Of a stretch of DNA of 64,000 nt, positions 39,732 to 57,593 are shown in pieces. The position numbers and the translations under genes were made by a program. The stretch spans positions 15,045 through 79,044 of the forward strand of contig JAXLUO010000018.1 of NCBI GenBank assembly GCA_046329495.1, in the 5' to 3' direction. Numbering within the stretch: the stretch's first letter is position 1; each line of letters opens with the position of its first letter. Under the pieces are notes generated by a model. That model searched no databases. It was not told the origin of the DNA and saw only the letters and a list, made by a program, of their open reading frames with translations. The stretch comes from Chitinophagales bacterium (GTDB lineage Bacteria; Bacteroidota; Bacteroidia; Chitinophagales; LD1).

Positions 39732-39897
39732 CTCTTCTTAAAATCAACTCAGTAAAGATATTTTAAATCTCATGAACAAGAATATTGCTGCCGTCTGCGT
39801 GGGTAGAAGAAAGAGTATACCAGCAAACCATTTTGTTAATTTTAAGTACTACTATTTGAAACTTTAAACCATTTAACCTATCTTTACAGAGCAATAA

Positions 39898-39910
39898 GTT
39901 CTTTGACAAC
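39898..39910 (+). promoter_or_regulatory. boxA-like motif GTTCTTTGACAAC in the conserved 5' module
   Basis: Identical 13-mer in copy C (58716-58728, minus strand) within otherwise diverged flanks. It resembles the rrn boxA motifs GCTCTTTAACAA and GTTCTTTGAAAAC as I recall them. Confidence 0.4.
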
Positions 39911-40178
39911 CTCAGTAAAACCTAAACCACCGGCAACCCACAACTGTCGCAAGGGTAAACTATACCTGCACACCGGGCACGAAATGTTATCTTAAGTCAA
40001 GCCAATGCCGGACAAAAGATGACATCTCTGTAGACCTGCCTGCCACAAACACACAGGATAACTATGCCCTGCCGCCAAACACTTTAAAATTCCGGCAATT
40101 TGTGCACGCAAAATCAACTGCACAAATGTGCACAAATGAAAACTTCTCTAATGCGTTCCATGTTGGAACTTGCCGAAA

Positions 40179-40629
40179 GTGTAAAGAAGTGTAAAGTTTA
40201 ACCTGCATTTATCTTGAAATTCCTCTACATCCAGAACATCCTGGTTCTAAAAGTGTAAAGGAGTGTAAAGTTGCAATTGCCGTGAACAGTGAACCGAGAA
40301 CTCTTTTAATTGTAAAGAAGTGTAAAGTTTGACCTGCATTTATCCTGAAAATCCTCTAGATCCTGAACATCCTGGTCCAAAAAGTGTAAAGAAGTGTAAA
40401 GTTCTATAAACTGTATTCTTTTTCTGTCTCTGTGTTAAATCATCGATTTCGATCATTTAACACAACCTTTTTCAGGACGCTACACGGGCTGTTAATCCTG
40501 AAATCCTCTAATCCTACGAATCCTAGTTCAGACAAAATTGTAACGAAGTGTAAAGTTTAACCTGCATTTATCCTGAAAATCCTCTAGATCCTGAACATCC
40601 TGGTCCAAAAAGTGTAAAGGAGTGTAAAG
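40179..40629 (+). promoter_or_regulatory. Iteron-like array: six (G/T)TGTAA(A/C)G-N3-GTGTAAAG sites (40179, 40253, 40310, 40384, 40538, 40612). Three pairs enclose about 50 bp tracts of ATCCT phased every 9-10 bp.
   Basis: Read directly. The tract cctgcatttatcctgaaaatcctctagatcctgaacatcctggtcc recurs at about 40202, 40333 and 40561. Confidence 0.7.
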
Positions 40630-40847
40630 TTTAAACCAAAAAAATTCTTTGCGTCTTTGTGTAAACCGCTTTTTTAATCGATTTAACACAAAAATCGCTC
40701 ATATGAATTTTTCTGTAACTTGTGCACAAGCTGAAAAGTGCACAAGCATGCACAAGTAGCTGTGGATAACCCCGGACTCTTCTGGCCTCCCATCAACGTT
40801 AAAAATACACTGCAAAACAGCCAATTAAGCGCAACGCTGCATTTTCA

Positions 40848-40874
40848 CCCCCTCTTTGCGAAGCAGAGAGGGGG
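40848..40874. other. Strong GC-rich hairpin (12 bp stem, 3 nt loop) with no T-tract
   Basis: ccccctctttgc gaa gcagagaggggg, one mismatch. Confidence 0.6.
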
Positions 40875-41080
40875 CCGGGGGGTGAGTCGAGGGCAAACTG
40901 GCTATCGAGAACACACCTACGGGGAACGAGGAACAATCCTGATTCAGCATTCTAAAATCAAAAATCCGTAATGATAGGCTTGATAGGCCTTTACGTGCAA
41001 CCAATCAATCCCTATCATTCCCAATCAAAAACTATCAAACCCTATCATAACTGTAAAACAGCAAGCCATCCATCTAAAGG

Positions 41081-41400
41081 TGTAACCTTTTTCAAAAAAT
41101 AAAACAACTCCGGCATCCTTGTATTTATCTGTGTATTATGTGCAATCGGTGGTTAACTGTATTTCAACCTTTAACTACCGCGCCAATCATAAAAATCTGT
41201 GTTTCTCTGCGTTCCATTAAAAGCGTGCCCCCTAATTCAATGTAACCTTTTCAAAAAAATAAAACAACTCCGGCATCCTTGTATTTATCTGTTTTAATCC
41301 GTGCAATCTGTGGTCAATTGTATTTCAAGCATTAAATACCGCGCCAATCATAAAAACCTGCGTTCATCTGCGTTCCATTGTATTACCCACCCATTCTCTA
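41081..41400 (+). repeat. Tandem repeat, 2 x about 160 bp, in the leader of the lipid operon
   Basis: gtaacctttt at 41082 and at 41242. The units share aaaataaaacaactccggcatccttgtatttatctgt and ccgcgccaatcataaaaa.ctg.gtt..tctgcgttccatt. Confidence 0.8.
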
Positions 41401-41475
41401 TATTGACTTTTATCACCCCAAAAACCTGCCTCCATTCCCCCGCACTTTCCTATTTTAACCCCTGCAAACTATACC

Positions 41476-43128
41476 ATGCAAGTAATAGACATACACCCCG
41501 ATTGGTGGAAGTGGGGCACTGCCGAAAAACGCAAGGCCCTAACCGATTATCCGAATCTGAAAACACATCTGGAACAACGTTGGAACATCGGCTTAAACAC
41601 CCGTCGCGATGAGCCCGCCAATTTTCCGGTACTAGCCAATGCCGATAACGCAAACAAACTGGAGATACTCTTTGGTCAGTTCAACTTTACAACAAAGGCC
41701 GATACCCGCTTAATTAAAAGCCTGGGCAAAAGCTATAAGGACCTTTTGTTTTCTGTTACCCGCACGGCTGTGCGTGTGGTGGATGGTGTGGTCTATCCGC
41801 AGAATCACGAGGAAATACAGCGTATTTTAGAGATTGCTTCGCGCGAAGGCGTGCTGGTAATGCCGTTCGGCGGTGGCAGCAACGTATGCGGCGATTTCGA
41901 TTTACCGGGTGCCGATGCCCGCCCCCGACTGGCTATGGACATGGCGAAGATGAATACCCTGCTACACCTCGATAAGGTAAACCACAAGGCCACCTTTCAG
42001 GCAGGTATTTATGGTCCGGCGCTGGAGCAAATGTTGAATGCACAGGGCTTTACCCTGGGTCATTTCCCGCAATCGTTTGAATATTCAACTCTCGGCGGTT
42101 GGGTGGTAACCCGCAGTGCAGGACAGGAAAGTTCCGGTTATGGTCGTATAGAAGATATTGCCATTGCAATAAAGGTGGCCACACCCACAGGCACCCTGCA
42201 AACCAGTAGTTACGAAGGCGACGCCGCCGGGGTGAACCTGAAAGGATTATACTTTGGCAGCGAAGGCATGTTTGGCGTAGTAACGGAAGTTACGGTGCGT
42301 ATCCATCCCCTGCCTAAAACAAAACAATGGGCTATTGCCTTATTCCCTAACTACCAAAGCGGGTTGAATGCGCTGCAAAGTTTAGTGCAGCAAAACATCT
42401 TCCCTACCGTTGTGCGCTATAGCGATGAGCACGAAACATTCTTTCTATCGCTGCTTTCGCACGAAACACCGGGCTTTGTTACCAACATAAAAGCAGCAGT
42501 AAAAAGCGCGGTGCTTAAATGGAAGAAGCTGGAGCAAGGCTGCATTATGATGATACGTTTTGAAGATGATTGTGGTGAAGATTGTCCGAAGTTGGAAAAA
42601 GCAAAACGCGCCTTTAGCGATAACGGTGCTATGCTGTTAGGCGATGCACTGGGCAAACGTTGGGAAACCAGCCGCTTTGGTTTGCCCTATTTGCGCGATG
42701 ACATGATGTTGCGCAATGTAGTGGTTGATACCATGGAAACCGTAGTACCCTGGAACAAAATTGACGAGTTGCGCAAAAAACTGCGCCTGGCTTTGGATAC
42801 CTGCACAGCCTTTCAAAATCAGCAGGGCATCCTGTTGGCGCATGTATCGCACGTATATACCAGTTGCGCCAGCATTTACTTTACCGTACTTACACCTATG
42901 CAAACAGGTAACGAAATGAACCAATGGCGCGAGATAAAGAAAACCGTAACCGATACGATTGTGAACAATGGTGGAGCAGTATCGCATCACCATGGCGTTG
43001 GTAAGGACCACCAGCCCTGGTATCTGCAAACTACCGATGAAGTAACCAAGCGCATTTTGCAAAGTGTAAAACAGGCTGTTGACCCGGCCAATATTCTTAA
43101 CCCCGGCAAGTTGTTCGATGAAGCGTGA
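41476..43128 (+). CDS. FAD-linked oxidase, alkyl-DHAP synthase (AGPS)-like
   Basis: 550 aa. PCMH-type FAD-binding domain (VVYPQNHEEIQRILEIASREGVLVMPFGGGSNVCG) and a C-terminal FAD-oxidase domain (HHHGVGKDH). Confidence 0.8.
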   Translation: MQVIDIHPDWWKWGTAEKRKALTDYPNLKTHLEQRWNIGLNTRRDEPANFPVLANADNANKLEILFGQFNFTTKADTRLIKSLGKSYKDLLFSVTRTAVRVVDGVVYPQNHEEIQRILEIASREGVLVMPFGGGSNVCGDFDLPGADARPRLAMDMAKMNTLLHLDKVNHKATFQAGIYGPALEQMLNAQGFTLGHFPQSFEYSTLGGWVVTRSAGQESSGYGRIEDIAIAIKVATPTGTLQTSSYEGDAAGVNLKGLYFGSEGMFGVVTEVTVRIHPLPKTKQWAIALFPNYQSGLNALQSLVQQNIFPTVVRYSDEHETFFLSLLSHETPGFVTNIKAAVKSAVLKWKKLEQGCIMMIRFEDDCGEDCPKLEKAKRAFSDNGAMLLGDALGKRWETSRFGLPYLRDDMMLRNVVVDTMETVVPWNKIDELRKKLRLALDTCTAFQNQQGILLAHVSHVYTSCASIYFTVLTPMQTGNEMNQWREIKKTVTDTIVNNGGAVSHHHGVGKDHQPWYLQTTDEVTKRILQSVKQAVDPANILNPGKLFDEA

Positions 43129-44677
43129 AGCACAAATACAGCGTGCACAAACCAAGCACTTTGATGTTGCCATCATCGGCGGCGGCATAACCGGCGCCGG
43201 CATTTTAATGAATGCCGTGCAGCAGGGTTTAAAAGCTGTGTTGATCGAAAAGAATGACTTTGCCTCGGGCACCAGCAGCCGCTCTTCTAAAATGATACAC
43301 GGCGGGTTGCGTTATATGCAGTACATGCAGTTTGGCTTAATTAAAGAAGCCCTGCAGGAGCGCGGCCATCTGCTCAAAAAGTTTCCGCACCTGGTTAAGC
43401 CGGTTGGTTATGTGTTCCCGCATCATGGTTCTAAACTGGGTTTGTGGGTAAAGAACATAGGCTTGACTTTGTATGACACCATGGCTGCTGATGCGGAGTT
43501 CCCGAAACATGTGTTACTCAACAAAGCGCAAACGCTTAGCGAAATAAACGGCTACACTACCGATAAACTGGCCGGCTCTATTTTGTATTACGATTGCGGC
43601 ACCAACGATGCCCGCTTAACGGTAGATACCATTTCGGAATGCATACACTACGGTGCGGTAGCTATTAATTATGTAAAGGCGATAAAAGCAGAAGGCGATG
43701 ATGCAATCACCACGCTACAATGCAACGATGTGTTAAGCGGAAGCAGCTTTAGTATTCAAGCTAAAGTATACATCAACGCCACCGGTATATGGACCGATGA
43801 AACCCTGCAACAGGTTGCCGGTATACCAAGCCGGCGCATGATGCCAACTAAGGGCATACATGTAGTGGTGAGCACCGATAAGTTACCCGCTAACCGCGTG
43901 GCCATTGTAAAAGTGCCCGGCGAAAAACGGTATATCTACAACCTGCCCTGGGAAAACAACCTGAGCATATTAGGTACTACCGATACTACCTACAACGGTC
44001 GCAACGATGAGGTACTCACAACCGAAGCAGATGTGCAATACATTCTGGATGCCTTCAACCACTGCTTCCCGAATTTGAAACTTACCTATGCCGATGTAAT
44101 AAGCGTTTATGCCGGTTTGCGTCCTCTATTAAACGACGAAGGAAAGGACAACAGCAGCCGCTCGCGCGAATACGAAACCTGGTGGAGCAAAACCAACTGG
44201 CTGAATATTGCCGGTGGTAAACTCACGTCGTTTTTAAATATGGGTAAGCGTTGCCTGCAGGTGGTACATCAAAGGTTCCCCGGCATGCAGGCCGGTATTC
44301 CTGAAAAAGAAACGTGGCACGGCACAGGCAAATGGGCCAAAGAGTATGGCGAGTTTGGTTTATTGATTGAAGCCATTGAACACGAAAAACCTGAACATAC
44401 ACAACGCATTAGTGCTGTGTATAACTACACCATAGCCGAACTGTTGTTTTTTATTCGCTACCAGTTTGCACAGCAGGTAGCAGATTTACTAACCCGCCGC
44501 ACCAGTGTTACTTATGCTATGCGCAATTATGATGCTTTACTTGTAAAGCAAGTGGCGGAATTGATGGCCCGCGAATTGCAAAAAGACGCTGCCTGGATAG
44601 AGGCAGCCTGCAATAGCTACTATCAGCATTGGCAGGAGTATCATCCCGCTTTCCTTACATCAACCCCTAAATCATAA
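43121..44677 (+). CDS. glpD: FAD-dependent glycerol-3-phosphate dehydrogenase/oxidase
   Basis: FDVAIIGGGITGAG dinucleotide motif, SSRSSKMIHGGLRY, GGKLTSF. The ATG overlaps the upstream stop (ATGAAGCGTGA). Confidence 0.85.
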   Translation, partial: KREAQIQRAQTKHFDVAIIGGGITGAGILMNAVQQGLKAVLIEKNDFASGTSSRSSKMIHGGLRYMQYMQFGLIKEALQERGHLLKKFPHLVKPVGYVFPHHGSKLGLWVKNIGLTLYDTMAADAEFPKHVLLNKAQTLSEINGYTTDKLAGSILYYDCGTNDARLTVDTISECIHYGAVAINYVKAIKAEGDDAITTLQCNDVLSGSSFSIQAKVYINATGIWTDETLQQVAGIPSRRMMPTKGIHVVVSTDKLPANRVAIVKVPGEKRYIYNLPWENNLSILGTTDTTYNGRNDEVLTTEADVQYILDAFNHCFPNLKLTYADVISVYAGLRPLLNDEGKDNSSRSREYETWWSKTNWLNIAGGKLTSFLNMGKRCLQVVHQRFPGMQAGIPEKETWHGTGKWAKEYGEFGLLIEAIEHEKPEHTQRISAVYNYTIAELLFFIRYQFAQQVADLLTRRTSVTYAMRNYDALLVKQVAELMARELQKDAAWIEAACNSYYQHWQEYHPAFLTSTPKS

Positions 44678-44684
44678 TTGCCGC

Positions 44685-45596
44685 ATGAAAAAGATCGCCT
44701 TTATTATCCATGGTCGCTTAAAAACACAAGGCCGTTTACAGCAGGAAGCATTAAGCACCTTTCAACCCGATTACCAGGTTTCGTTTTTATTAACGGAGCG
44801 TAGTGGTCATGCCACGGAACTTACCATGCGTGCGGTAGAACAGGGTTGCACGCACATTATCTGTTGTGGTGGCGATGGTAGTTTAAATGAATGCGCCAAC
44901 GGCCTTATGCAATGCGGCGATAAAGCAGCCGATGTGCAGTTAGGTGTGTTACCTTACGGCACCGGTAACGACTTTATCAAAACGGTTCAATCACCAAAAA
45001 CAATGGCTGCCTTAAAACAGGCTATCGAGAAGGGTGGTAAAAAGCTGATCGACTTAGGCCATGCCTGGTATACGGGAACAGATGGTCAACCGGTTAACCG
45101 CTACTTTATTAATATAACCGACATCGGTATGGGCGGTGTGGTAGCTGAAAAGTTGAGCCGTAGCAGTAAGATGTTCGGCTCTACCGTTACTTACCAATAC
45201 TCTATTATCTCCACCTTCTTTACTTACCAAAAGCAACCCATTAAGGTGCAGGCAGATAGTTTTAAGTACGAAGGCCGTGTGATGAACTTTGTAATTGCCA
45301 ACGGTATCTGGTTCGGTAGTGGCTTAGGTGTTTCGCCCGATTCGGATGTGTGCGATGGCTTGCTGAACGTAATTGCCCTGGGCGATGTGGGCACAGCCGA
45401 CTACTTTAAAAACCTGAGCAAAGTAAAGAAGGCCGAAAAAGTAATGCACCCCGAAGTGAAATATATGACAGCCCGCGAAGTAAATGTTGAATCATCATTA
45501 GGTCCCATTAGCATTGATATGGATGGGGAGTTTGTGGGCTACTCGCCCTTAAAGGTTAAAGCAGTACACAAAGCGCTTTGGTTTATTACGGGTTAA
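44685..45596 (+). CDS. Diacylglycerol kinase-family lipid kinase (YegS/BmrU/sphingosine kinase-like)
   Basis: GGDGSLNE and LPYGTGNDF motifs of the DAGK catalytic domain. 303 aa. Confidence 0.85.
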   Translation: MKKIAFIIHGRLKTQGRLQQEALSTFQPDYQVSFLLTERSGHATELTMRAVEQGCTHIICCGGDGSLNECANGLMQCGDKAADVQLGVLPYGTGNDFIKTVQSPKTMAALKQAIEKGGKKLIDLGHAWYTGTDGQPVNRYFINITDIGMGGVVAEKLSRSSKMFGSTVTYQYSIISTFFTYQKQPIKVQADSFKYEGRVMNFVIANGIWFGSGLGVSPDSDVCDGLLNVIALGDVGTADYFKNLSKVKKAEKVMHPEVKYMTAREVNVESSLGPISIDMDGEFVGYSPLKVKAVHKALWFITG

Positions 45597-45927
45597 AAGC
45601 GCATTTTACACATAAGTATTATTTGCTATTCAACTTGCAATTGGGCATATTTTACCACATAGCGAAAGTTCGCAGTTGTTAAATATGCTATGTTTTAAAG
45701 GCCGGTGTGGAGAAAAAAGAAGGCATAACATTTGTTGCATTTTCAGCAAAAAACACGCAAAAACAAATGCTTTTGACGTCATTTTATGCTCAATTCCATT
45801 TGTGCTCATTCATATATGCAAAGTGTTTTCCACGCATATTAAAGCGCCTAAAAACGAATTTTTCGCAAAAAGGCACATCTTTGTATTCATCCATAAAACG
45901 AAGCGATTATTCACGAAAAGGTTTTGA

Positions 45928-47151
45928 ATGAGTCTATTCGATAAATGCTACAACTATAACGATGCCGACCTTACTAAGGACAAAGGCGTGTATCCTTACT
46001 TCCGCCCTATTCAGGAAAGCGAAGGCCCCACTGTAATGATGGAAGGTAGAAGGGTGGTAATGGCAGGTTCTAACAATTACCTGGGCTTAACGGCACACCC
46101 TAAAGTAAAGGAAGCAGCATTTGCGGCGCTTAAGAAATACGGCACCAGTTGTTCCGGCTCACGCTTCCTAACCGGCACTATCGATCTGCACATTAAGTTG
46201 GAAGAAAAGATAGCACGCTTTATGGGCAAGGAAGCCGCACTGTTGTTCAGTACAGGATTCCAGGCCGGCCAGGGTGTTATCTTCCCTTTAATCAGCAAAG
46301 GCGATTACATCTTAAGCGACCGCGATAATCATAGCAGCATTGTAGCAGGCAACTTATTGAGTGCTTCTATGCACGCACATGTAGTACGCTACAAGCACAA
46401 CGATATGGAGGATTTGGAGAATCGCTTATCCAAAATCCCTGCCGAAGCAAACAAACTGATTGTTACCGATGGCGTGTTCAGCGCACATGGCTTGGTAGTT
46501 AACTTAACCGATCTTACCGCACTTGCTAAAAAGTATGGCGCACAGGTATTGGTAGATGATGCACACGGCTTTGGTGTACTTGGTCCTGATGGAAAAGGTA
46601 CCGTGCATCATTTCGGCGCTGAAAATGATGTAGACCTTATTGTATGTACCTTCAGCAAAACCTTAGCTTCTTTAGGTGGTTTTGTAGTTGGCGAAGAGCG
46701 CGTTATCAATTACCTGAAACATAAATCACCGGCCTTAATATTCTCTGCATCACCTACACCTGCATCTGTTGCAGCTGCTGATGCAGCACTGGATATATTA
46801 ATAGAACAACCGGAATTAGCAACACGTGTTCGCCGCAATGCTGAACGTGTTCGTCAGGGCTTGCGCGATGTAGGCTTTTCAGTTATTGAAGGCGAAGCAG
46901 CTATCGTTCCGGTTATCATCGGCGACGATCAAAAGACTTTTGCTATCTGGAAGATGTTATATGAAGAAGGCGTGTTTGTGAATGCGTTCATTTCGCCTGC
47001 AACGCCTCCGGGCATGCAAATGCTGCGTACCAGCTATATGGCTACACACGAAGACCACCACCTCGATTTTATAGTAGATAAATTTCTAAAGGTGGGCCGG
47101 CAACTCGATTTACTGAACCGCGACATAGAAGAAGAGCGCAAAAGAGCCTGA
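45928..47151 (+). CDS. spt: Alpha-oxoamine synthase, most similar to Bacteroidota/Sphingobacterium serine palmitoyltransferase
   Basis: YPYFRPI, GSNNYLGL, GSRFLTGT, LFSTGFQ, VDDAHG, the PLP lysine in TFSKTLASLGGF, and GVFVN. This matches my recollection of Sphingobacterium SPT better than BioF or Kbl. Confidence 0.7.
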   Translation: MSLFDKCYNYNDADLTKDKGVYPYFRPIQESEGPTVMMEGRRVVMAGSNNYLGLTAHPKVKEAAFAALKKYGTSCSGSRFLTGTIDLHIKLEEKIARFMGKEAALLFSTGFQAGQGVIFPLISKGDYILSDRDNHSSIVAGNLLSASMHAHVVRYKHNDMEDLENRLSKIPAEANKLIVTDGVFSAHGLVVNLTDLTALAKKYGAQVLVDDAHGFGVLGPDGKGTVHHFGAENDVDLIVCTFSKTLASLGGFVVGEERVINYLKHKSPALIFSASPTPASVAAADAALDILIEQPELATRVRRNAERVRQGLRDVGFSVIEGEAAIVPVIIGDDQKTFAIWKMLYEEGVFVNAFISPATPPGMQMLRTSYMATHEDHHLDFIVDKFLKVGRQLDLLNRDIEEERKRA

Positions 47152-47210
47152 TAAATTAAACTAATTATATTTCGGGATGCTATGCGCAGGCAGGCACCAA
47201 ACAAACAGTC

Positions 47211-48509
47211 ATGAAACAACGCCATTACTACTACATTGAAGGAAAAGATCCTCAAAACCCATCGCAATTAAAATACCTGCGCCGACAAATAGAATGTGAT
47301 GATGCATTTGATGGAGAGTTGATCCTTTTGGCTTTCCCGATTAAGTTGCTGGATGAAATATCAGGAGTCCTATCGCATTTTCAATTGCGCGATGATGCCG
47401 ACTATTTTTACAGCGAATGCCGTGAAGTAGTAAGCGTTCCTGAAAAGCACGTAAACGAAAAGGGCGAAGGTAAACTGACCTTTCAGAGTTACTTCCATAA
47501 GTTCCCTGAGTCGGTAAATTCATTCTTTGACGATGCTAAGGTGGTAGTCATCTTGCATCCACTGGATAGTGCCGATAACAACCGTCGTAACTACAATATG
47601 ATCGGTTACATCCATGCCAACCATATCGACTTCACTTCACCGGACGGACAACTGCATAAAGGCTATTACTACAATGTATTGCGATTAAGCGAACAAACGG
47701 TAAACGGTGAAGCTATTTATCGCCGCAAGCGACTATTCACAACTATGTTCAGTGTGTTATTGGATATCGTTACACTGGAAGACATTCACTTTGTATATGC
47801 CAGCATGGGCCGCGAAAACCAGGCCATTAACGATGCGCTGAAAATGAACAGCGAACGCCACGGCAAGTTTTTCGAAACCTTCCCGATGCGTAACAACACG
47901 CACATCAACATCATTTATGGCAGTGGCAGTGCCGCCAATAAGCTGGTAGACATCTCAAAAAATCACGAAGCCTTGCGCGAATACTACAGCAAGTTAAAGC
48001 AGCAGAAACACAACTTCGTATTCAACCAGATGCACAACGAGAGCAACTTTATGAATATGGTTAACCGTATTCTTAGCTCTTCGCCAACAAGTCGCATTTA
48101 TATGATGCCCGACAAAGCAGGTAACTTTGATGCAGCCGGCTTTACCATCAACTGGGGCGACTACATGCACCTGAAACTGCAAAACCCTAAAGGACTCTTT
48201 AAGGTTATTGATAGCATGAAAATTACCGATAAGATTCTGTATCCAACCTTATTGGTCGGCTCGCCTGAGAATGTGCGTCAACTGGCCAAAGGTGCTGCAT
48301 ATAAGTATCGTAAGGAACACGGCGTTCAGGTAACTGTATTAAACGGTCACGAAGGAGATCCATATTTTGATGTAAAGAAGAGTATCGTATATGATCCGTT
48401 TGTATACTTTGTAATCTATGACCGTCCGGAGACTTACGAAGCCATGAAGGCCCACAGTAGGGATGCCGCCGGTAACACCCGCATCTTTATTGAAACGCCC
48501 ATGTTATAA
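47211..48509 (+). CDS. Hypothetical protein, 432 aa, function unknown
   Basis: Long ORF with coding-like composition, 59 nt downstream of the spt-like gene on the same strand. No motif recognised. Confidence 0.6.
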   Translation: MKQRHYYYIEGKDPQNPSQLKYLRRQIECDDAFDGELILLAFPIKLLDEISGVLSHFQLRDDADYFYSECREVVSVPEKHVNEKGEGKLTFQSYFHKFPESVNSFFDDAKVVVILHPLDSADNNRRNYNMIGYIHANHIDFTSPDGQLHKGYYYNVLRLSEQTVNGEAIYRRKRLFTTMFSVLLDIVTLEDIHFVYASMGRENQAINDALKMNSERHGKFFETFPMRNNTHINIIYGSGSAANKLVDISKNHEALREYYSKLKQQKHNFVFNQMHNESNFMNMVNRILSSSPTSRIYMMPDKAGNFDAAGFTINWGDYMHLKLQNPKGLFKVIDSMKITDKILYPTLLVGSPENVRQLAKGAAYKYRKEHGVQVTVLNGHEGDPYFDVKKSIVYDPFVYFVIYDRPETYEAMKAHSRDAAGNTRIFIETPML

Positions 48510-48685
48510 CAGGTAACGTAATTACGCTTAAAGTCGCGAAGTATAATCAAGTTGATTTCATCCAATTCGTTGAACCTTGGGTCCTAATGGCAAGAGTATT
48601 GTGCGTGTAATGAGTGTTCTCATGGCGGGTTTTAAAATTGGCCCTAATTTTGCACCTTCACTCCTAATCCCACAAATTAACAGAT

Positions 48686-49504
48686 ATGAAAAAGCACCTC
48701 CTTCCCTTCGCTATAGCCCTTATTGCGGCTATAATTGTTGCAGGTTGTAAAAAGAAAACCGATGGCTTCGACAGCGATACGGCTACTTCGTATTCGACCA
48801 TTGATAACCTCTTTAAGGATGTAAATAAGGTAATTAACGACGCAGCAGCAGAAAACAACCTGAGTGGCAAAATGGAATCAACCGAAAGCCTTTGTGCGGA
48901 AGTTACAATTACCCCGGCCGACCTTGTTACCTTCCCTAAAACCGTAGTGGTTGACTTTGGCAGCGTAGGCTGTATCGATATGAATGGCGTTACCCGCAAG
49001 GGTAAATTCACCGCTGTGTTCACAAACTACCTTAACCAACCCGGTGCACACGTTGAAGTTACCTTTCAGGACTATTATGTAAACGGAGTTAAACTGGAAG
49101 GCATTTACGATCTGGCCAACACCAGCCCCAACACTAACTCCCGCTCCTTTGCAGATACCGTTACAAATGGTAAAGCAACAACACCTGACAACAAATTCTG
49201 CACCTGGACATCTTACCGCAGCTCCGTACAAAGCGCTGGCTTTAACACCCCCACTTTAACTGACGACGAGTACACCGGCCAGGCGCAAAGCTTTGGTGTA
49301 GGTTTTGGAGGTAAAAACTTCAATGCAACTTCTACCAACATTGTTTGGCGTTTGGCTTGCCGCTACCTGGTAAGTGGTAATGTATCCATCCTCAGCGGCA
49401 CCGACCCTACACCAATCTTAGTTGATTTCGGTAGCGGCACCTGCGATAACAAGTATGATGTATCCTATAGCATCTACCATACTGCGCTCGTGTTCTGGTA
49501 TTAG
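48686..49504 (+). CDS. Hypothetical lipoprotein
   Basis: Signal plus lipobox (IIVAGC). 272 aa. Confidence 0.6.
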   Translation: MKKHLLPFAIALIAAIIVAGCKKKTDGFDSDTATSYSTIDNLFKDVNKVINDAAAENNLSGKMESTESLCAEVTITPADLVTFPKTVVVDFGSVGCIDMNGVTRKGKFTAVFTNYLNQPGAHVEVTFQDYYVNGVKLEGIYDLANTSPNTNSRSFADTVTNGKATTPDNKFCTWTSYRSSVQSAGFNTPTLTDDEYTGQAQSFGVGFGGKNFNATSTNIVWRLACRYLVSGNVSILSGTDPTPILVDFGSGTCDNKYDVSYSIYHTALVFWY

Positions 49505-49507
49505 AAA

Positions 49508-49921
49508 TTAATTACGGGGCTCAATCAATAACTCATTGTAACCGGTCTGGGCATCTTGTCTTCGGGCAAAGTTCAGACTGGTTATTTCTCCTATAACAAT
49601 CTCGGCTGTTGTATAAATGAGGTTGCCATTCAATAAGTGGCCTCCGGTAACCTGCCCATCACTATCTGCAATTGACATATGTAGATGCGCGGCTCCATTA
49701 CCAATAGTGCCCACCAGCGAAACAATCTCGAACTTATTATCCAGCAGCATGCCTTCCTGACAATCGGCAAAGCGAAGGCTGGCCTGTTGTAAACTGCCAT
49801 TGCAGGTTGCTACAAAGGCAGCCTTTAGCTGATGCGTTTCCGCAAATGCCAGTAATTCAATCTTTAAATCCTGCCCAGGCTTCAAGCGCAGGGCATAGTA
49901 GGTTGCAGGGCTACCCGTCAT
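49508..49921 (-). CDS. PPC (DUF296) domain protein
   Basis: RLKPGQDL ... FEIVSLVGTI ... HLHMSIADSDGQVTGGHL is the typical DUF296/PPC pattern. Confidence 0.7.
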   Translation of the reverse strand: MTGSPATYYALRLKPGQDLKIELLAFAETHQLKAAFVATCNGSLQQASLRFADCQEGMLLDNKFEIVSLVGTIGNGAAHLHMSIADSDGQVTGGHLLNGNLIYTTAEIVIGEITSLNFARRQDAQTGYNELLIEPRN

Positions 49922-49926
49922 AGGGT

Positions 49927-50883
49927 TTATTTCATTTCCTTTATAGTAATAGGTGCTACCCCAATCTTCTTACATACCGCAGCAGCACCACGGTTGGCCC
50001 ATTGGGCTATTTCTTTCAAGCCGTACTTCTGAGCAAACAACAGTGCAGAGATACTTATTACGGTATCCCCCGCTCCCGATACATCCGCTGCCTTTATACT
50101 GCGAGCCGGCACAATAAAGGATTGTCCGTCCTTAGTAAAGCAGAAGATGCCGTTAGCACCCAGTGTAACCATCAGGTTTTTAAACCGTGTTTTGCGGCGC
50201 AATTCTTCGGCACCACTACGCAGGCTATCTAAACTCTTAGGGTTAATGCGGTAGCCAATGGCTTCACTTAACTCGCGCAGGTTTGGTTTAAACAGGTCTA
50301 TTGCCTGATATTCCATAAAGTTGCGCTCCTTAGGATCAACTGATACAGGGATACCATTCTTAGTAGCCAGCAACAATATCTGTTTGATAAAGTACTTGGT
50401 TAGCACACCTTTATTATAATCCTGCAGAATGATGATATCGATCTTTTGATTGGCCAGCGTTTTCTTAAACTCCTTAATCAGCAGGTTCTCTTGCGCTTCT
50501 TCCACGTCGTCAACTTCCTCTTCATCAAAGCGCACTACTTGCTTATCCTCATCAAAAATGCGGGTCTTAAGCGTGGTTACACGGCCTTTATGCTGCAGCA
50601 CATGGTTGGTCTTCACACCTTTTGCATTCAGCATGTTTAATAACATAGCGCCAGTTGCATCACGACCAATCATGGTAAGCAACAATGGATTAGCGCCAAG
50701 TGCTAACAAGTTCAAGGCTACGTTAGCTGCACCACCGGGGCGGGCTTCTTTCTTCAATACCTCCACCACAGGCACCGGCGCTTCGGGCGATATGCGGTTT
50801 ACCTCGCCAAACAGGTAAAAGTCAACCATTACATCCCCTATCACCAGCACATTCAGGTCGTTGAAATTTAATTTAGTAGCCAT
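49927..50883 (-). CDS. PfkB-family sugar kinase, D-glycero-beta-D-manno-heptose-7-phosphate kinase (RfaE domain I)-like
   Basis: VLVIGDVMVDFY, GGAANVA, and the C-terminal DVSGAGDT anion-hole motif. Confidence 0.75.
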   Translation of the reverse strand: MATKLNFNDLNVLVIGDVMVDFYLFGEVNRISPEAPVPVVEVLKKEARPGGAANVALNLLALGANPLLLTMIGRDATGAMLLNMLNAKGVKTNHVLQHKGRVTTLKTRIFDEDKQVVRFDEEEVDDVEEAQENLLIKEFKKTLANQKIDIIILQDYNKGVLTKYFIKQILLLATKNGIPVSVDPKERNFMEYQAIDLFKPNLRELSEAIGYRINPKSLDSLRSGAEELRRKTRFKNLMVTLGANGIFCFTKDGQSFIVPARSIKAADVSGAGDTVISISALLFAQKYGLKEIAQWANRGAAAVCKKIGVAPITIKEMK

Positions 50884-50971
50884 ATCTTATAACCAATTAA
50901 GCACAACAACCCTGCACATTTCTACATGTTGCAGGGCTGTTGTATAAAGAAGAATTGCAGTTTCGTTCAAA

Positions 50972-52183
50972 TTAAGCAAGGTTGGCAAACGCCGCTTTCA
51001 TGCGCTTGCAGGCTTCAGTAAGTTTTTGTTCGCTGGTAGCATAGCTAATGCGCAGGCAGTTCTTATCGCCAAACGCCTCGCCGCTTACTACACCTATCTT
51101 GGCTTCGCTCAGTAAATACAGCGATATGTCTTCCGGTGTGTTCATCACCTTATCGTTAAACTTTTTACCAAAGTAAGCGCTTACATCAAAGAAGAAGTAA
51201 AACGCACCATCAGGCAAGTTCACTTTCAAGCCTGGGATTTCCTTCAATAAACCATAAACCAAATCGCGGCGTTTGCGGAACTCTTCTACCATCTTCATCG
51301 AAGGTTCTACACTACCCAATAAGGCTGCTTCACCGGCCTTTTGTGCAATAGAACAAGTGCCGGAAGTAAACTGACCCTGCATTTTATCGCATGCCTTGGC
51401 AATAGCCAATGGTGCGCCAATGTATCCTAAACGCCAACCGGTCATAGCAAATCCCTTGCTAAAACCGTTCACGGTTATTACCTGTTCTTTAATATCTGCA
51501 AACGATGCCAGGCTGGTATGCTTTTTACCGGTAAAGTTGATGTACTCGTAAATTTCATCACATAACACAAATACATTCGGGTGGCGCTTTAACATAGCCG
51601 CCAAGGCTGCCAGTTCTTCATACTCATATACTGAACCTGTAGGATTGCAGGGTGAAGAGAAGATGATAAGCTTGGTTTTAGGTGTAATATGTTTCTCTAA
51701 TTCTGTAGCACTAACTTTAAAGTTAGTTTCAATTCCTGCAGCAACCTCTATGCATTTAGCCTCTGCCAATTCAGCGATAGCTGCATAGCTAACCCAATAA
51801 GGGGCAGGCAGTAACACTTCATCACCTGGGTTTATTAAACTCAACACCACATTAGCGATACTTTGCTTAGCACCTGTGCTTACTACTATTTGATCAACGG
51901 TATAATCCAGTCCGTTATCGCGCTTAAACTTTTCAGCAATTGCCTTGCGCAGTTCAGGGTAACCCGGTACCGGGGTGTATTTAGTGTAACCTTTATCGAT
52001 GGCATCTTTGGCAGCATCTTTAATATGCTGTGGGGTATCAAAATCAGGTTCGCCTAAGCTAAGGTCGATAACATCGTGGCCTTGTGCCTTTAATTCGCGG
52101 CTAAGTTTCGCCATTTTAATAGTGGCGCTTTCCTGCATGTTGTTAATACGTTCCGAAAGATAGTTTGCCATTGCCTGGGTCAT
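50972..52183 (-). CDS. Class I/II PLP-dependent (aspartate) aminotransferase
   Basis: LSLGEPDF, SSPCNPTG, and the PLP lysine in NGFSKGFAMTGWRLGY. The start is set at MTQAM. Confidence 0.85.
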   Translation of the reverse strand: MTQAMANYLSERINNMQESATIKMAKLSRELKAQGHDVIDLSLGEPDFDTPQHIKDAAKDAIDKGYTKYTPVPGYPELRKAIAEKFKRDNGLDYTVDQIVVSTGAKQSIANVVLSLINPGDEVLLPAPYWVSYAAIAELAEAKCIEVAAGIETNFKVSATELEKHITPKTKLIIFSSPCNPTGSVYEYEELAALAAMLKRHPNVFVLCDEIYEYINFTGKKHTSLASFADIKEQVITVNGFSKGFAMTGWRLGYIGAPLAIAKACDKMQGQFTSGTCSIAQKAGEAALLGSVEPSMKMVEEFRKRRDLVYGLLKEIPGLKVNLPDGAFYFFFDVSAYFGKKFNDKVMNTPEDISLYLLSEAKIGVVSGEAFGDKNCLRISYATSEQKLTEACKRMKAAFANLA

Positions 52184-52384
52184 GCTTGTTTTTTGTGCGT
52201 TTACGGCAATTTTGCCGCCGCCGCGAAAATACAACACAGCGAACATTTTACCCCTGTTTTTGCAAAAAGTAATGCACTATATGTGGATGCTTCTTCCTGC
52301 TACTGCCAGCGGGCTACTAAGGGATGCCTGCTAAAGCAAAACGCCCCTTTGCAGGAGCGTTTGCTAATATGCTCCATCTTAAGT

Positions 52385-54175
52385 TTAGTCGTTCAGTTTA
52401 AGTACGGCGATAAAGGCCTGTTGGGGCACCTCAACCTTACCAAACTGGCGCATCTTCTTTTTACCCTTCTTCTGCTTCTCCAACAGCTTACGTTTACGGC
52501 TGATATCACCACCATAACACTTGGCTGTAACGTCCTTACGGATAGCAGATATGTTTTCGCGGGCGATGATCTTGGCGCCGATGGCTGCCTGAATAGGAAT
52601 CATAAACTGCTGGCGCGGAATCAATTCCTTCAGCTTTTCGCACATCTTACGGCCAAAATCTTCGGCCTTGGTACGGTGAATCATCGAACTGAAGGCATCC
52701 ACTACTTCGCTGTTTAACATAATGTCCAGCTTCACTAAGTCGCCGGCACGGTAATCAACCGGGTGGTAATCGAAAGAGGCGTAACCGCGGCTGATAGACT
52801 TTAAGCGGTCGTAGAAGTCGAATACAATCTCGGCCAGCGGCATCTCGAACATTAACTCTACACGGTCTTCGGTGAGGTAGTTCTGATTTAACAGGATACC
52901 GCGCTTTTCCATACACAAGGTCATAATAGAACCGATGTACTCCGGCTTGGTAATCACCTGGGCACGGATATATGGTTCTTCCAAGTGGTCGATACGCGAT
53001 ACATCCGGCATATCGGCCGGGTTGTGGATGGTAATTTCATCACCATTGGTAAGGTAAGCCTGGTAGCTAACCTGTGGAACGGTGGTAATAATGGTCATAT
53101 CGTATTCGCGTTCCAAACGTTCCTGCACAATTTCCAGGTGCAATAAACCAAGGAAGCCGCAACGGAAACCAAAGCCCAGCGCTATCGAAGTTTCGGGTTC
53201 ATATACCAAGGAGGCATCATTCAACTGCAACTTCTCCAAAGAGTCGCGCAGATCCTCGTAATCATCGTTATCCATTGGGTAGATACCGGCAAATACCATT
53301 GGCTTCACATCTTCGAAACCATGGATGGCTTCTTTACAAGGATTGGCCTGAGTAGTAATGGTATCACCCACTTTAATCTCTTTGGCATTCTTAATGCCGG
53401 TAATGATATAACCTACGTCGCCGGTTTTTACCTCACTACGTGGTTCCAGATCCAGGCGCAGGATACCCACTTCATCGGCCAGGTAGTTTGCGCCTGTGTT
53501 AACGAACTTAACTTTGTCGTTCTTTTTCAGGCTACCATCCAGAATACGGAAGTAGGCGATTACACCGCGGAAAGGGTTAAAAACCGAGTCGAAAATCAAA
53601 GCACGTAAAGGCGCATTCGGATCGCCTTTAGGGGCCGGTAACTTATCGATGATAGCATCAAATATCTTATCTACACCCAAGCCGGTGCGGCCAGAGGCAA
53701 AGATGATCTCCTCGCGCTTACAACCTACCAACTGCACCATCTGGTCTGCTACCAACTCGGGGTTGGCGCCGTCCATATCAATTTTGTTCACCACCGGTAT
53801 AATGGTAAGGCCCTGGTCCAGCGCCAGGTACAGGTTACTGATGGTTTGTGCCTGAATACCCTGGGCAGCATCTACCAGCAACAAGGCGCCTTCGCAGGCG
53901 GCCAGTGAACGCGATACTTCGTAACTGAAGTCAACGTGGCCGGGGGTATCAATCAGGTTCAATACATATTTCTTGCCATCGCGGATAAAGTCCATCTGTA
54001 TGGCGTGACTTTTAATAGTAATGCCGCGTTCGCGTTCCAGGTCCATGTTATCCAACACGGTATCCATCATAGCGCGCTCGCTGATGGTTTTGGTGGTTTC
54101 GATAAGGCGGTCGGCCAGGGTGCTTTTACCGTGGTCGATGTGAGCGATAATGCAGAAGTTGCGGATATTTTCCAT
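52385..54175 (-). CDS. lepA: Translation elongation factor 4 (LepA)
   Basis: [32 protein letters not shown], and a LepA-specific C-terminal domain. 596 aa. Confidence 0.97.
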
Positions 54176-54393
54176 TGGGCGGCGAAGATAAGAAGTATGG
54201 TGGAATGCGATAATAACGGCGCTTTAACATTTTACGGCCTTTTACAAGCTATTTTAATGGACCCAAAACCAGGAAGCCACTCTGATTTTGAGCACTTTAC
54301 AAACCTTACGGCGATCTACCTGCCATCTGAGCCTCCTCACTTTAAAATATAGCCGAAAACGGCATATTTACACCGCAGGGCCACGCCGCCCTG

Positions 54394-54954
54394 GTGAAAG
54401 CGCCCATGGAGCAAGCAACTAACCAACCTACACGCAACAACTGGTATGTAATAACCGGCGGACCCGGCTCGGGTAAAACCACCTGTATTGATATGCTGCG
54501 TACCATGGGTTACAGGACTACCGAAGAGCCTGCCCGGCATTATATGGACATCCAGCGCCACAACGGTAACTCGCTTGAAGTGCTGCGCGCCCACCAGCGC
54601 GATTTTCAACTGGCCATTTTAAAGATGCAGTTGGAGCAGGAACAAAGCCTGAACCCTGCTGAACTCACCTTCCTGGACCGTGGCATACCCGATTCGCATG
54701 CTTACTACCATTTTCTTCAAATACCTGAGGACCCTCAATTGGTTGAAGCACTAAAACATATCTCCTACAAAAAGGTGTTCATTATGGACTGTTTACCGCT
54801 GGTTAACGATTATGCCCGTATTGAAGACGAAGCAGCTCAATTAAAAATCCACCAGTTACTTATTGAAATCTACGAAGCCCTTCCTTTTCCTATTGTTCGC
54901 GTTCCGGTTATGAGTGTGGAGGAAAGGGTTGGATTTATATTAAGAAACCTTTGA
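54394..54954 (+). CDS. P-loop ATPase (AAA_28/NadR-C-like)
   Basis: Walker A ITGGPGSGKTT, 186 aa. GTG start, with an alternative ATG at 54406. Confidence 0.65.
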   Translation: MKAPMEQATNQPTRNNWYVITGGPGSGKTTCIDMLRTMGYRTTEEPARHYMDIQRHNGNSLEVLRAHQRDFQLAILKMQLEQEQSLNPAELTFLDRGIPDSHAYYHFLQIPEDPQLVEALKHISYKKVFIMDCLPLVNDYARIEDEAAQLKIHQLLIEIYEALPFPIVRVPVMSVEERVGFILRNL

Positions 54955-55029
54955 TAGTTAGGAGTTGTGAGTGATGAGTTTTGCGTGATGCTTTCATTCA
55001 ACTATTTTATTGCTATCTATTATTACATT

Positions 55030-55458
55030 CTACCTTCTTAACTGCTCATAAGCGTTCCTCATAGATTCTTTTATCCTCTTTGTCAGCTCCAACTCATCCA
55101 ACGCAGGCTGATTTGCTTCAAACAAAGCTATTAACGCAGCTTTATGTTCAGGATGACTTAACCAATATCCTGACTCAATTTGCAGCAGGGTATTAAGCAA
55201 GTCGCCTTCATAAAAATCTCCTGACACAAAAGGGTTGGCTTTTAAAAATTCCAGTACGCGCGGCACAAGAATTTCCAAGGCTATATTTTGACCGAGCAGT
55301 AGCCGGTAATCTTCTGCTGTAAATGCTGATAACTCCTTCTTTCTAAGCAGATGACATTGCTGTACCAGGTACGATGCTCTTCTATCGGGTTCGCCCCATA
55401 TCGCCTGCTCTAACAATTCAATTGTGTCGTTCATAAGATCGCATCTCAATACAACCAA
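55030..55458 (-). CDS. Possible CdiI-type (contact-dependent inhibition) immunity-like protein
   Basis: All-helical, 142 aa. The pattern ED.RLLLGQNI.LE.L.P..L..L..NP...G.FYEGDLL..LL resembles the CdiI_2 immunity family as I recall it. An alternative start is at 55434. Confidence 0.45.
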   Translation of the reverse strand: MVVLRCDLMNDTIELLEQAIWGEPDRRASYLVQQCHLLRKKELSAFTAEDYRLLLGQNIALEILVPRVLEFLKANPFVSGDFYEGDLLNTLLQIESGYWLSHPEHKAALIALFEANQPALDELELTKRIKESMRNAYEQLRR

Positions 55459-56192
55459 ATACTATCCCCAGTTTCATTAGCCAATACAATAGTATCTCCA
55501 AGCCAATACCGCCATAATTCAGGTTCCACCTTATTCTTCCTATACATTGCTAGTAAATCTACCGTATCCTCTGCCATTAAAAAATCCGTTACTACGTCAT
55601 AAGCATCATAAACTGGTAACCCGATTAGTTTGCCATCCGGAGAAAATCTAACCATTCTATCCTGTTTTTGACTTTTATTGGTGTGAAAATGGTAGTTCCC
55701 ACCAAACAAAAATCCGTTTGTGAAGCGATGTGTTGCCACGCCAACCGAAGAACGAGTAAGGGTATCCCACCTTAAATAGGAACAGAAAACTTTCTTTTTG
55801 TTCCGTAAGAATAAGGTATCCTTTTCTATGCTTACCAAAACTGAGGTGTCTCCGTCAAACAAATCTGAATAGCCAGAAACCTTCAACACAAACGGATACG
55901 AACTCGCATCGATTGATAACCAATCTCCTTCGTGGTTGCCCAAGGAAATGTATACCGCTACAGTATCATTTTCCAGGTTAAATTGTAATTCCGAAAATCC
56001 TCTTAGCTGTTTATGACTTAAAAGAGGAGATTTCGTGCTTCGAAGAGTGTCTATATAGCTAAGCTTAAGCCAGGCACCATTCAGGTCTTTCGCTTTGATA
56101 GTTGATGGCGCAGTTCCTGTCTTGTGATTACAGCCCATAATCAACACAGCTAGAAAACAAAAACTTATCCTTGTTATATTACTACTTCTCAT
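55446..56192 (-). CDS. Hypothetical lipoprotein
   Basis: Signal plus lipobox (LIMGC). 248 aa. Overlaps both neighbouring genes by 11-13 nt. Confidence 0.55.
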   Translation of the reverse strand: MRSSNITRISFCFLAVLIMGCNHKTGTAPSTIKAKDLNGAWLKLSYIDTLRSTKSPLLSHKQLRGFSELQFNLENDTVAVYISLGNHEGDWLSIDASSYPFVLKVSGYSDLFDGDTSVLVSIEKDTLFLRNKKKVFCSYLRWDTLTRSSVGVATHRFTNGFLFGGNYHFHTNKSQKQDRMVRFSPDGKLIGLPVYDAYDVVTDFLMAEDTVDLLAMYRKNKVEPELWRYWLGDTIVLANETGDSIWLY

Positions 56193-56550
56193 ATTTCAAG
56201 CCCAAATATCCTTCTATAAAACCCGAATACTCATAAACCTGAATGGTGTATAGAAATTTAACATAAAGCACGAACAAAACTGAACCACCCAACAACCATA
56301 ATTCAGGATGTTGCACCTCCATAAACCTGGTTGACACTCCATTTAAATTAAGCATTATAGCCAATATCAAATAAAAGAGCGGTAAACCGTACAACACCAA
56401 TTTTAGCTTATCGCTAATCGTATAAGTTATATGCACCTTTGATTGCGAGGCATTTTCAACCGTGCCTTTCAATACTATTTTAAGCTGTCCCCTAGGACTT
56501 GGTTTTGGAGCTATTTCAAATGAATCGGACCTAACCTTTCCAACAAACAT
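56182..56550 (-). CDS. Hypothetical membrane protein
   Basis: 122 aa with two transmembrane segments in the C-terminal half. Confidence 0.45.
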   Translation of the reverse strand: MFVGKVRSDSFEIAPKPSPRGQLKIVLKGTVENASQSKVHITYTISDKLKLVLYGLPLFYLILAIMLNLNGVSTRFMEVQHPELWLLGGSVLFVLYVKFLYTIQVYEYSGFIEGYLGLKYEK

Positions 56551-56677
56551 TGTCTCCTTCTGTTATGTTCAATAAATGGCGCAGCGCCTCTTCGATTTCA
56601 CTCGGACTAATTACACTGGAATAGCTTATTGATTTTTCGAAAAGAGAGACCCTCATACAAATTCCTACCACGATTTT

Positions 56678-57118
56678 TTATATAAATAGTGTGTCGTTAT
56701 TTTTAATTGCATCCTGCAAATCCACGCCCTGTAAATTACAGCTTTCAAAAACTGCATGTTGCAAAAGTGCGCCCCTTAGCACAGCATCTGATAGCTCACA
56801 TTTTGAAAACCGGCTATACGCTAAAAACGCATTTGCAAAATAGGTACTACTCAGATTACAATTAATAAATTGTGTCTCTTTAAGAAACGCACAAGCGAAC
56901 GAGGTATTCACTAAAATACAGTTTTGAAACACTGCGCCATTTAGCTTACTGTAAGCAAAAGTTGCCCCGGTTATACTGCAATCTTTAAAAATAATTCCTT
57001 CCAGATTATCCCCTTCGAACAGGATACGATGTAGATTACGATTACTTATAACAGCCCCTTTAAAGCTGGTTAGCTTGAAGGCATATTCATCTTCTGCATT
57101 TGATGGCACCCTTATCAT
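56678..57118 (-). CDS. Pentapeptide-repeat protein
   Basis: Continuous A(D/N)LxF-type pentads (GATFAYSKLNGAVFQNCILVNTSFACAFLKETQFINCNLSSTYFANAFL). Confidence 0.8.
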   Translation of the reverse strand: MIRVPSNAEDEYAFKLTSFKGAVISNRNLHRILFEGDNLEGIIFKDCSITGATFAYSKLNGAVFQNCILVNTSFACAFLKETQFINCNLSSTYFANAFLAYSRFSKCELSDAVLRGALLQHAVFESCNLQGVDLQDAIKNNDTLFI

Positions 57119-57495
57119 CGCGCATATTTTGTTTTCTTCGTTCCGATACTTTTATGCTGCCGTATCCATAGGCTGTTATCTCGAAAATTCACCAGTTTAG
57201 TACCAAAAAGGCCAAATTTTGCATTCTCTATATAAGCAAAAGTATAAGCATCTACGGTAGTATCCTGCAGATTTGTGTAGATCGTATCCCGCTTTTGTCT
57301 CCACTGTATTTTCGCTTCTCCCTTTCCCAAAAGGTGTATACTAAATTTAAACTCGCCTTCGCCATTTGGTTTGAACACCAGCTTTCTCGAAAATCCTTCT
57401 ATGCCATAGTTATAAATGCCAGGCCGTAACTGCTTACATGCCGAAAGAAATAGCATCATTAGAAGTAGAATATATATACCCCGATAATCCATCAC
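57115..57495 (-). CDS. Hypothetical lipoprotein
   Basis: Signal plus lipobox (FLSAC). 126 aa. ATGA start/stop overlap with the pentapeptide gene. Confidence 0.5.
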   Translation of the reverse strand: MMDYRGIYILLLMMLFLSACKQLRPGIYNYGIEGFSRKLVFKPNGEGEFKFSIHLLGKGEAKIQWRQKRDTIYTNLQDTTVDAYTFAYIENAKFGLFGTKLVNFRDNSLWIRQHKSIGTKKTKYAR

Positions 57496-57593
57496 CGAAA
57501 TGTAAGGAATTCATGAATGCCAATATCTCAGTTGTTATTCGACGCCCAGATTATAGCTGCAGTAAGCATTTGAACAAAACAAACACCGTACTA

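Follow-up and report, generated by a model that had tools for sequence, protein, structure and literature searches.

A conserved promoter-like head with an rRNA-type boxA on dispersed mosaic repeats of an uncultured Chitinophagales bacterium

An uncultured Chitinophagales genome and one sister species carry a family of dispersed, non-coding mosaic repeats that begin with a common head, in which a Bacteroidota-type promoter sequence is followed by a boxA motif of the kind found in the genome's own rRNA (rrn) operon. We found 45 such heads in this genome, and a similar number in the sister species. The promoter geometry and the polarity of the head are fixed, its promoter and boxA positions are under selective constraint, and it is not linked to any class of downstream gene. 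From this arrangement we infer that the head is transcribed, loads Nus factors and confers resistance to Rho, and that either the RNA or the transcription of the arrays would have a role. On sequence grounds, a portable head from which polymerase, modified by Nus factors and resistant to Rho, transcribes non-coding repeat arrays is the reading that we favour, with a confidence evenly poised between acceptance and doubt.

Results

Three copies of the element in the window

The window, i.e. the whole 64,000-nt stretch of DNA that was analysed, contains three copies. Copy B spans 39821-40775 on the plus strand and copy C 58805-58202 on the minus strand. Copy A is present through its 3' module M3 (4-104, plus strand), the rest lying beyond the window start, and its head, bearing GCTCTTTGAAAT, is found just outside, at G000:C10:14728-14821 (G000 is this genome). 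The 5' modules of copies B and C were paired by the repeat finder as two sets of arms, 39821-39953 / 58673-58805 (79% complementary) and 40047-40159 / 58497-58609 (93%). The conserved islands that the first-pass annotation had quoted were all recovered at their places in both copies, on the plus strand in B and the minus strand in C. The same holds for the boxA-like 13-mer GTTCTTTGACAAC, located at 39898-39910 (+) and 58716-58728 (-), with no third site in the window. With at most one mismatch allowed, 0.04 matches to this 13-mer are expected by chance in the window, and two matches were reached in 0 of 100 shuffles.

In copy B (all coordinates on the plus strand), the 5' edge of the head is an A/T-rich conserved block (ATTTTGTTAA..., 39830-39855), and similarity between paralogs starts at ATTTTGTTAA. 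It is followed by the -33 TTG (39856-39858), within a conserved TTGAAAC of which the GAAAC columns are near-invariant, by the -7 box TATCTTTA (39879-39886), which is the TAnnTTTG consensus with a final A and is kept in every head, and by boxA GTTCTTTGACAAC (39898-39910), which resembles the rrn leader and spacer boxA. The leader body (39911-40046) has two subfamily islands, ctaaaccaccggcaacc (39922-39938) and gatgacatctctgtagacc (40018-40036). Across the genome, ACCTG.AAACACTAAA 3' of boxA is common to most heads, the remaining leader body being confined to one subfamily. Next come module M85 (40047-40159, TTTGTGCAC-N12-TGCACAAA-N2-GTGCACAAA), 93% identical to that of copy C, a variable array (40177-40631) of GTGTAAAG-pair units and ATCCT tracts (Rep96 five times, plus 'mid'), and finally M3 (40660-40770), which has three TGCACAAG half-sites and terminates in TGTGGATAAC. 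On the minus strand, the head of copy C occupies 58673-58805 (-33 TTG at 58770-58768, -7 box TATCTTTA at 58747-58740, boxA at 58728-58716), its M85 58497-58609 and its M3 58202-58291, the last two as delimited by repeat-finder arms. Downstream of copy B (41081-41379 and 40940-41060), we also observed two 160-nt tandem units and runs of a CCTATCA-type motif. Both are dispersed modules, 'post1' and 'post2', with 17 and 33 BLAST hits genome-wide, and they often occur after M3.

A mosaic family with a fixed module order

BLAST of the copy-B modules against the genome revealed a fixed order: head, M85, zero to five GTGTAAAG/ATCCT units (Rep96), then M3. The family occupies about 68 loci, at 45 of which a profile search recognises a head. 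The head is always 5' of M85, repeats and M3 and on the same strand, and no exception to this polarity was found. M85 has about 31 copies in the genome, with three GTGCACAA-type half-sites, and M3 has 45-47 copies, nearly invariant and sharply bounded on their 3' side after GATAAC. The number of GTGTAAAG-array units differs from locus to locus, and element length ranges from 0.35 to 1.6 kb. All body modules are composed of short motifs phased some 10 bp apart, which suggests protein docking at the DNA level rather than a function of the RNA.

Five 'solo' heads precede a non-coding body of a second type, unrelated to the first, in which CCTCAGC and TCAGCAT motifs abound (G000, C9:5404-5800, C1:558176-557700, C6:22673-23000, C33:157004-156700 and C1:4884-4600). 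The same head is thus found before unrelated bodies, as would be the case for a cassette joined to different partners. The second body reads CCTCAGCCAAACCTCAGCA ... ATCAGCATTCATGCTGAT ... AGGCTGA, and a sixth copy, at C33:108770, is headless.

Two further observations concern the bodies. Among the 50 perfect DnaA boxes (TTATCCACA) of the genome, 31 sit at M3 3' ends (40761-40770 in copy B), and the 19 located elsewhere compare with about 41 expected from composition; M3 could be a DnaA-binding or titration site. In addition, an IS110-family transposase gene (352 aa) lies within one element, between array and M3 (G000:C31:71625-72683). Two more copies, 100% identical, are found outside elements (C34:164848 and C9:51409), and this looks like a recently active IS. 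An autonomous parent element was considered and rejected, since the only protein gene enclosed in the elements is this IS110-family insertion, which is also found elsewhere without the repeats.

The boxA of the heads matches that of the genome's rrn operon

The first-pass annotation had called the 13-mer boxA-like by likeness to the rrn boxA of E. coli and of the Bacillus type, and comparison with the genome's real rrn leader bears this out. The single assembled 16S gene (C7:82568-84092) is preceded by a leader boxA, GTTCTTTGAAAT, at C7:82457, about 110 nt 5' of the 16S, and the 16S-23S spacer has a boxA, GTTCTTTGACAT, at C7:84429. The motif is the same: the boxA of the elements, GTTCTTTGACA(A/T), is identical to the spacer boxA or differs from it by one base. 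Reciprocally, a profile built on the heads and run over the rrn region had three hits and no others: promoter P2, the spacer boxA and the leader boxA, the last with added likeness in ATAC.GGTAA. The 13-mer is also conserved beyond the window, the profile having 45 matches in the genome, with GTTC(T/C)TTGACA as the top conserved block. A boxA variant, GTTCCTTGACAT, is present in 11 of 43 heads and absent from the rrn sites. In a different family of the order, the spacer 12-mer is likewise found ahead of the 23S gene. Given that the genome's own rrn leader and spacer carry the matching motif and that the head profile recovers them, the boxA identification is sound at the sequence level. More than 90% of promoter-proximal boxA sites in this genome are non-rrn. 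One detail has to be corrected: the Bacillus-type boxA quoted in the first-pass annotation, GTTCTTTGAAAAC, is off, the consensus of B. subtilis rrn operons given in a 2026 paper being AUGAUCUUUGAAA (PMC13753749).

Upstream of the rrn operon, three tandem promoters, P1 to P3, of the form TTG-N19-21-TA(T/C)CTTTG can be read from the sequence. Besides the canonical leader boxA, CGTTCTTTAAA is found about 20 nt 3' of the -7 box at both P1 and P2 (C7:81790-82470). A diverged IS110-like ORF lies immediately 5' of these promoters (C7:80414-81352).

A promoter-like sequence at a fixed spacing

The first-pass annotation had placed a Bacteroidota-type promoter ahead of boxA, and both the head profile and the rrn sequence agree with such a promoter, arranged like those of the genome's rrn operon. 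It had taken as the -7 box of copy C the octamer TATATTTG, which is indeed present at 58775-58768 on the minus strand, 39 nt ahead of boxA, with TACTATTTG as its counterpart in copy B, also as described. This octamer, however, appears to contain the -33 TTG instead. The nearest TTG upstream of it is only 15 nt away, as read from copy C, it decays to ATAAGAAAC in one third of the copies, and the TTG stands 20 nt from TATCTTTA in 37 of the 42 heads. TATATTTG is thus better read as the carrier of the -33 element, and TATCTTTA as the -7 box.

The most conserved columns of the head are GAAAC, TATCTTT and GTTC(T/C)TTGACA. TATCTTT is kept in all copies; of 42 heads, 29 have the TTG and the 13 others AAG or TAG in its place. 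In 40 of 43 heads, a promoter-like TTG-N20-TATCTTTA sequence is found 5-13 nt 5' of boxA. After an invariant TA..TTT start, the last base of the -7 box varies (TTTA in 30 of 43 heads, TTTG in 8, TTCG in 5), and a weakness of the promoter reading is that the box mostly ends with an A, as compared to the G of the consensus. The distance between -7 box and boxA varies from 5 to 13 nt across heads. A fixed spacer within the promoter combined with a variable distance to boxA fits a promoter followed by an element acting in the RNA. In Flavobacterium psychrophilum, maps of transcription start sites place the -7 box, of consensus TAnnTTTG, at -12 to -5 (PMC9723704). Transposed to copy B, this would set the start near 39891 and boxA at about +7.

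An old family, with promoter and boxA motifs under selection

The flanks of 34 elements were searched against the sister genome, G024, and loci were considered comparable when both flanks were adjacent in G024. At 7 of 10 comparable loci the element is held in both species, and 2 of 10 are empty in G024, with insertion edges that are not exactly defined. The two empty loci correspond to C36:105274 and C1:134888; at the latter, the flanking genes are separated by about 12 nt in G024 and by about 830 nt here. Head identity is around 85-90% between orthologs and around 70-79% between paralogs. Together with the shared loci, these identities indicate an old family, for the most part passed on stably and now and then gained or lost at a locus.

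We then compared the seven pairs of orthologous heads column by column. Changes affected 6 of 172 positions (3.5%) in the -33, -7 and boxA columns, versus 126 of 502 (25%) in the other columns (Fisher p = 6e-12), a contrast somewhat favoured by construction, as conservation among paralogs had guided the choice of columns and the heads were aligned by fitting to the profile. For the -7 box alone, 1 of 49 positions changed. This difference in rates points to purifying selection on the promoter and boxA motifs. The contrast is large, and it is our main reason to think that promoter and boxA are in use.

The ortholog of the copy C head in G024 is located at C5:560657-560778. The 17.4-kb block between the inverted copies B and C (window 39821-58805) is inverted relative to G024 (C5:543910-563922). 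G024 has a single element there (C5:560426-560778, the copy C ortholog, which reads toward an AGPS-like gene), and its other junction is devoid of element. An inversion bracketed by two copies is what intramolecular replicative transposition would leave, or else recombination of a new copy with an old inverted one. The element shares with MITEs its presence/absence polymorphism relative to G024 (2 of 10 comparable loci). A MITE or other non-autonomous transposon was nevertheless rejected, the two ends, ATTTTGTTAA... and ...TGTGGATAAC, being unrelated, with neither terminal inverted repeats nor target-site duplication.

Distribution of the family

A pattern combining -7 box and boxA gave 20 matches in this genome and 18 in G024, 0-1 in each of 38 other genomes of the genus, and 0-2 in each of 120 other genomes of the order. 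Among GTDB species representatives, the M3 core was found only in G024 (MAG Chitinophagales bacterium MAG_MBR_H125.33, from a membrane bioreactor); it was not found in JGI metagenome contigs. As to a plasmid or phage origin, blastn returned no match. One match of the pattern in other Chitinophagales is a spacer boxA close to the 23S gene. The remaining ones have no known RNA family within about 3 kb (1.1 kb, up to the contig end, for locus L108). In G024, TATATTTATACATAGTTCTTTGAAAA, which joins a -7-like box to a boxA-like word downstream of it (locus L109), was seen at C2:261248, 262773 and 264701 and at C3:51201 and 54033. The copy at C2:261248 is some 180 nt 5' of an IS3-type orfA, at the left end of an IS3-type element.

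Non-coding bodies in a context that would call for antitermination

The elements do not appear to encode a protein or a structured RNA. The frame following an ATG at the M85 end was read in four copies and has early stops in some, giving no conserved small ORF. Rfam 15 gave no match at gathering score in the window, with chance-level matches only at E≤1, and nothing 3' of the solo heads. In the first 100 nt after boxA, no general RNA-structure signal was detected (mean z of -0.7, versus -0.5 for the antisense), and of five copies of the second body type a single one folds well. In view of the near-equal sense and antisense z values and of this single copy, structured RNA was rejected as a general feature; M3 is too close to invariant for covariation to be assessed. 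A k-mer scan found no CRISPR array in the assembly. A CRISPR reading of the GTGTAAAG arrays was therefore rejected, all the more as their inter-repeat segments recur between loci. The same scan picked out, at G000:C32:70650-71120, five or more near-identical units of some 100 nt in tandem, which look like tRNA 3'-half fragments beside what may be one or two full tRNA genes.

Long untranslated RNA richer in C than in G is the classic substrate of Rho. On the sense strand of 35 elements, C amounts to 22.8% and G to 18.8%, versus 22.7% each in the genome. No intrinsic terminator was found in the body of 24 of the 35 elements, and for 28 of 35 none was present on the sense strand within 300 nt downstream. 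Untranslated bodies with more C than G, and mostly without intrinsic terminators, make a context that would call for antitermination. The genes for NusB (G000:C23:265426) and Rho are present in the genome. Against Rho, boxA is described as the safeguard of rRNA and, in other bacteria, of CRISPR arrays (PMC13753749 and PMC7862264, both after Stringer 2020).

Discussion

Proposed mode of action

We propose that the head is a Bacteroidota sigma-A promoter (-33 TTG, 20-nt spacer, -7 TATCTTTA) directly followed by an rrn-type boxA. RNA polymerase would start about 5 nt past the -7 box, and boxA would emerge before the RNA is 20 nt long. The boxA RNA GUUCUUUGACAU and its variant GUUCCUUGACAU, as putative NusB-S10 targets, would recruit NusB-S10 and the rest of the Nus factors, as in rRNA transcription. 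The polymerase so modified would resist Rho and cross 0.3-1.6 kb of untranslated repeats with more C than G (M85, GTGTAAAG arrays and M3). In the two sister Chitinophagales species, some 45 heads per genome would start orphan non-coding units in this manner, mainly at operon boundaries.

Alternative readings

The first-pass annotation had suggested that a Nus-antiterminated 5' leader carries transcription across structured DNA into the downstream protein-coding genes. All three copies in the window are indeed aimed at a co-directional gene, which explains how the idea arose; it fails genome-wide. When neighbours were defined as ORFs of at least 140 aa, the first gene downstream had the direction of the head in 19 of 43 cases and the opposite one in 24, in line with an even split (binomial p = 0.54), so that read-through into genes is not the general rule. 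Heads were counted 15 times in convergent, 14 times in divergent and 14 times in tandem intergenic regions, where the genome predicts 7.9, 7.9 and 27.3 (p = 1.4e-4), and the 15 convergent ones face the 3' end of the next gene. The co-directional genes share no function: by eye they are unrelated housekeeping-type genes (SerC-, Ffh-, aconitase-, QueE- and NrnA-like), plus an IS transposase. Few terminators stand on the sense strand between the elements and what follows, and at C1:134888, where the element splits two co-directional genes almost abutting in G024, it would have to supply or pass on transcription. As a general function, a leader for genes is nonetheless unlikely. The opposite orientation of the gene faced by 24 of 43 heads would suit Rho-resistant antisense or spacer transcripts regulating the neighbours, and the contrast between 45 promoter-proximal boxA sites and one assembled rrn operon would suit decoys titrating NusB-S10 away from that operon. 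This proposal is purely inferential, the rrn copy number may be under-assembled, and we regard it as less probable still, to the point of being very unlikely.

A serious rival to the promoter-boxA reading acts at the DNA level: the head would belong, as one module among others, to a semi-mobile mosaic repeat of intergenic regions (BOX, NIME or BIME kind), and its conserved blocks would dock DNA-binding proteins or a recombinase. The head's likeness to a promoter and boxA would then derive from captured rrn promoter DNA, with no role in antitermination. All other modules of the family are arrays of short motifs in a phase of about 10 bp, and only two sister genomes have the family, which is what such a repeat would show. 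The excess in convergent and divergent regions, the presence/absence differences at 2 of 10 comparable loci, and the inverted copies flanking a segment that is inverted relative to G024, where the copy is single, are also expected for it. Against it, the gap between -7 box and boxA varies by several nucleotides while the promoter spacer is fixed, which is unexpected for cooperative DNA sites, and the constrained positions are exactly those of promoter and boxA. Furthermore, the head joins unrelated bodies yet retains its polarity, and terminal inverted repeats or target duplications were not found. We consider this DNA-module reading, taken jointly with the capture of rrn promoter DNA, as possible, though we would not bet on it.

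Comparison with known systems

Antitermination by boxA is known from rRNA operons, lambdoid phages, a few mRNAs and CRISPR arrays, and almost all knowledge of it comes from Proteobacteria. With the boxA of rrn leaders and spacers, where the NusB-S10/NusA/NusG/SuhB complex assembles, the heads share an 11-12-nt motif, the -33/-7 geometry and, by our inference, an untranslated RNA that follows. Unlike in the rrn case, no rRNA follows, the copies are dispersed (about 45), boxA would be at the very 5' end of the RNA (about +1 to +9), and it has no recognisable partner resembling boxB or boxC.

CRISPR leaders carry a boxA ahead of long untranslated arrays (Stringer 2020, eLife 9:e58182, as reported through PMC7862264 and PMC13753749), and in engineered boxA-CRISPRi arrays of Legionella transcription of distal units was raised around 10-fold (PMC7862264). 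The position of boxA between a promoter and a long untranslated repeat array is the same here, but the 'spacers' recur between loci, and units are found at about 45 loci rather than as one or two arrays. Outside rrn operons, boxA also acts upstream of suhB and other gamma-proteobacterial genes, in a study where non-coding RNAs were left unsurveyed (Baniulyte et al. 2017, PMC5725501). The suhB-type boxA lies at most 50 nt from a start codon and represses the gene (PMC5725501), whereas our heads belong to Bacteroidota and no ORF follows them.

As to repeats, the family resembles pneumococcal BOX elements, the neisserial NIMEs and the E. coli BIMEs by its set order of modules, its variable internal units, its intergenic location, its tens of copies and its lack of protein. 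BOX elements have the structure boxA-boxB(n)-boxC and, like the present heads, are over-represented between convergent genes (PMC3049150); their 'boxA' is a namesake only. No conserved promoter with a Nus-type boxA at one end is reported for BOX, NIME or BIME, and the present elements, of 0.35-1.6 kb, occur in two species. Putative mobile promoters, or promoter reuse (PMC3575422), and the promoter-bearing Correia elements (as cited in PMC3049150) likewise place near-identical promoter segments before unrelated sequences in one genome. Unlike these, the head reused here includes a putative transcript-borne antitermination signal, and precedes non-coding bodies rather than genes. The parts are therefore of known kinds; we could not find a description of dispersed, selected, orphan rrn-style heads on mosaic repeats of Bacteroidota.

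Significance

In its boldest form, our proposal is that some 45 selected, orphan rRNA-style units, each made of a housekeeping promoter and a Nus boxA, transcribe only protein-docking repeat arrays. We put this forward tentatively, and rather doubt that it holds in full. If true, it would define an undescribed class of dispersed antiterminated non-coding units, the job of which might be to drive a Rho-proof polymerase through protein-binding arrays or to make RNA from them. Possible purposes would then be resetting the arrays, sponging their binding proteins or buffering Nus factors.

Should transcription from the heads be confirmed, the Nus system would have more natural uses than those known, and Bacteroidota would offer a compact natural part, promoter plus anti-Rho signal, for the expression of long non-coding RNA. 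It would also give a handle on the purpose of dispersed mosaic repeats, a long-standing puzzle for BOX, BIME and NIME elements.
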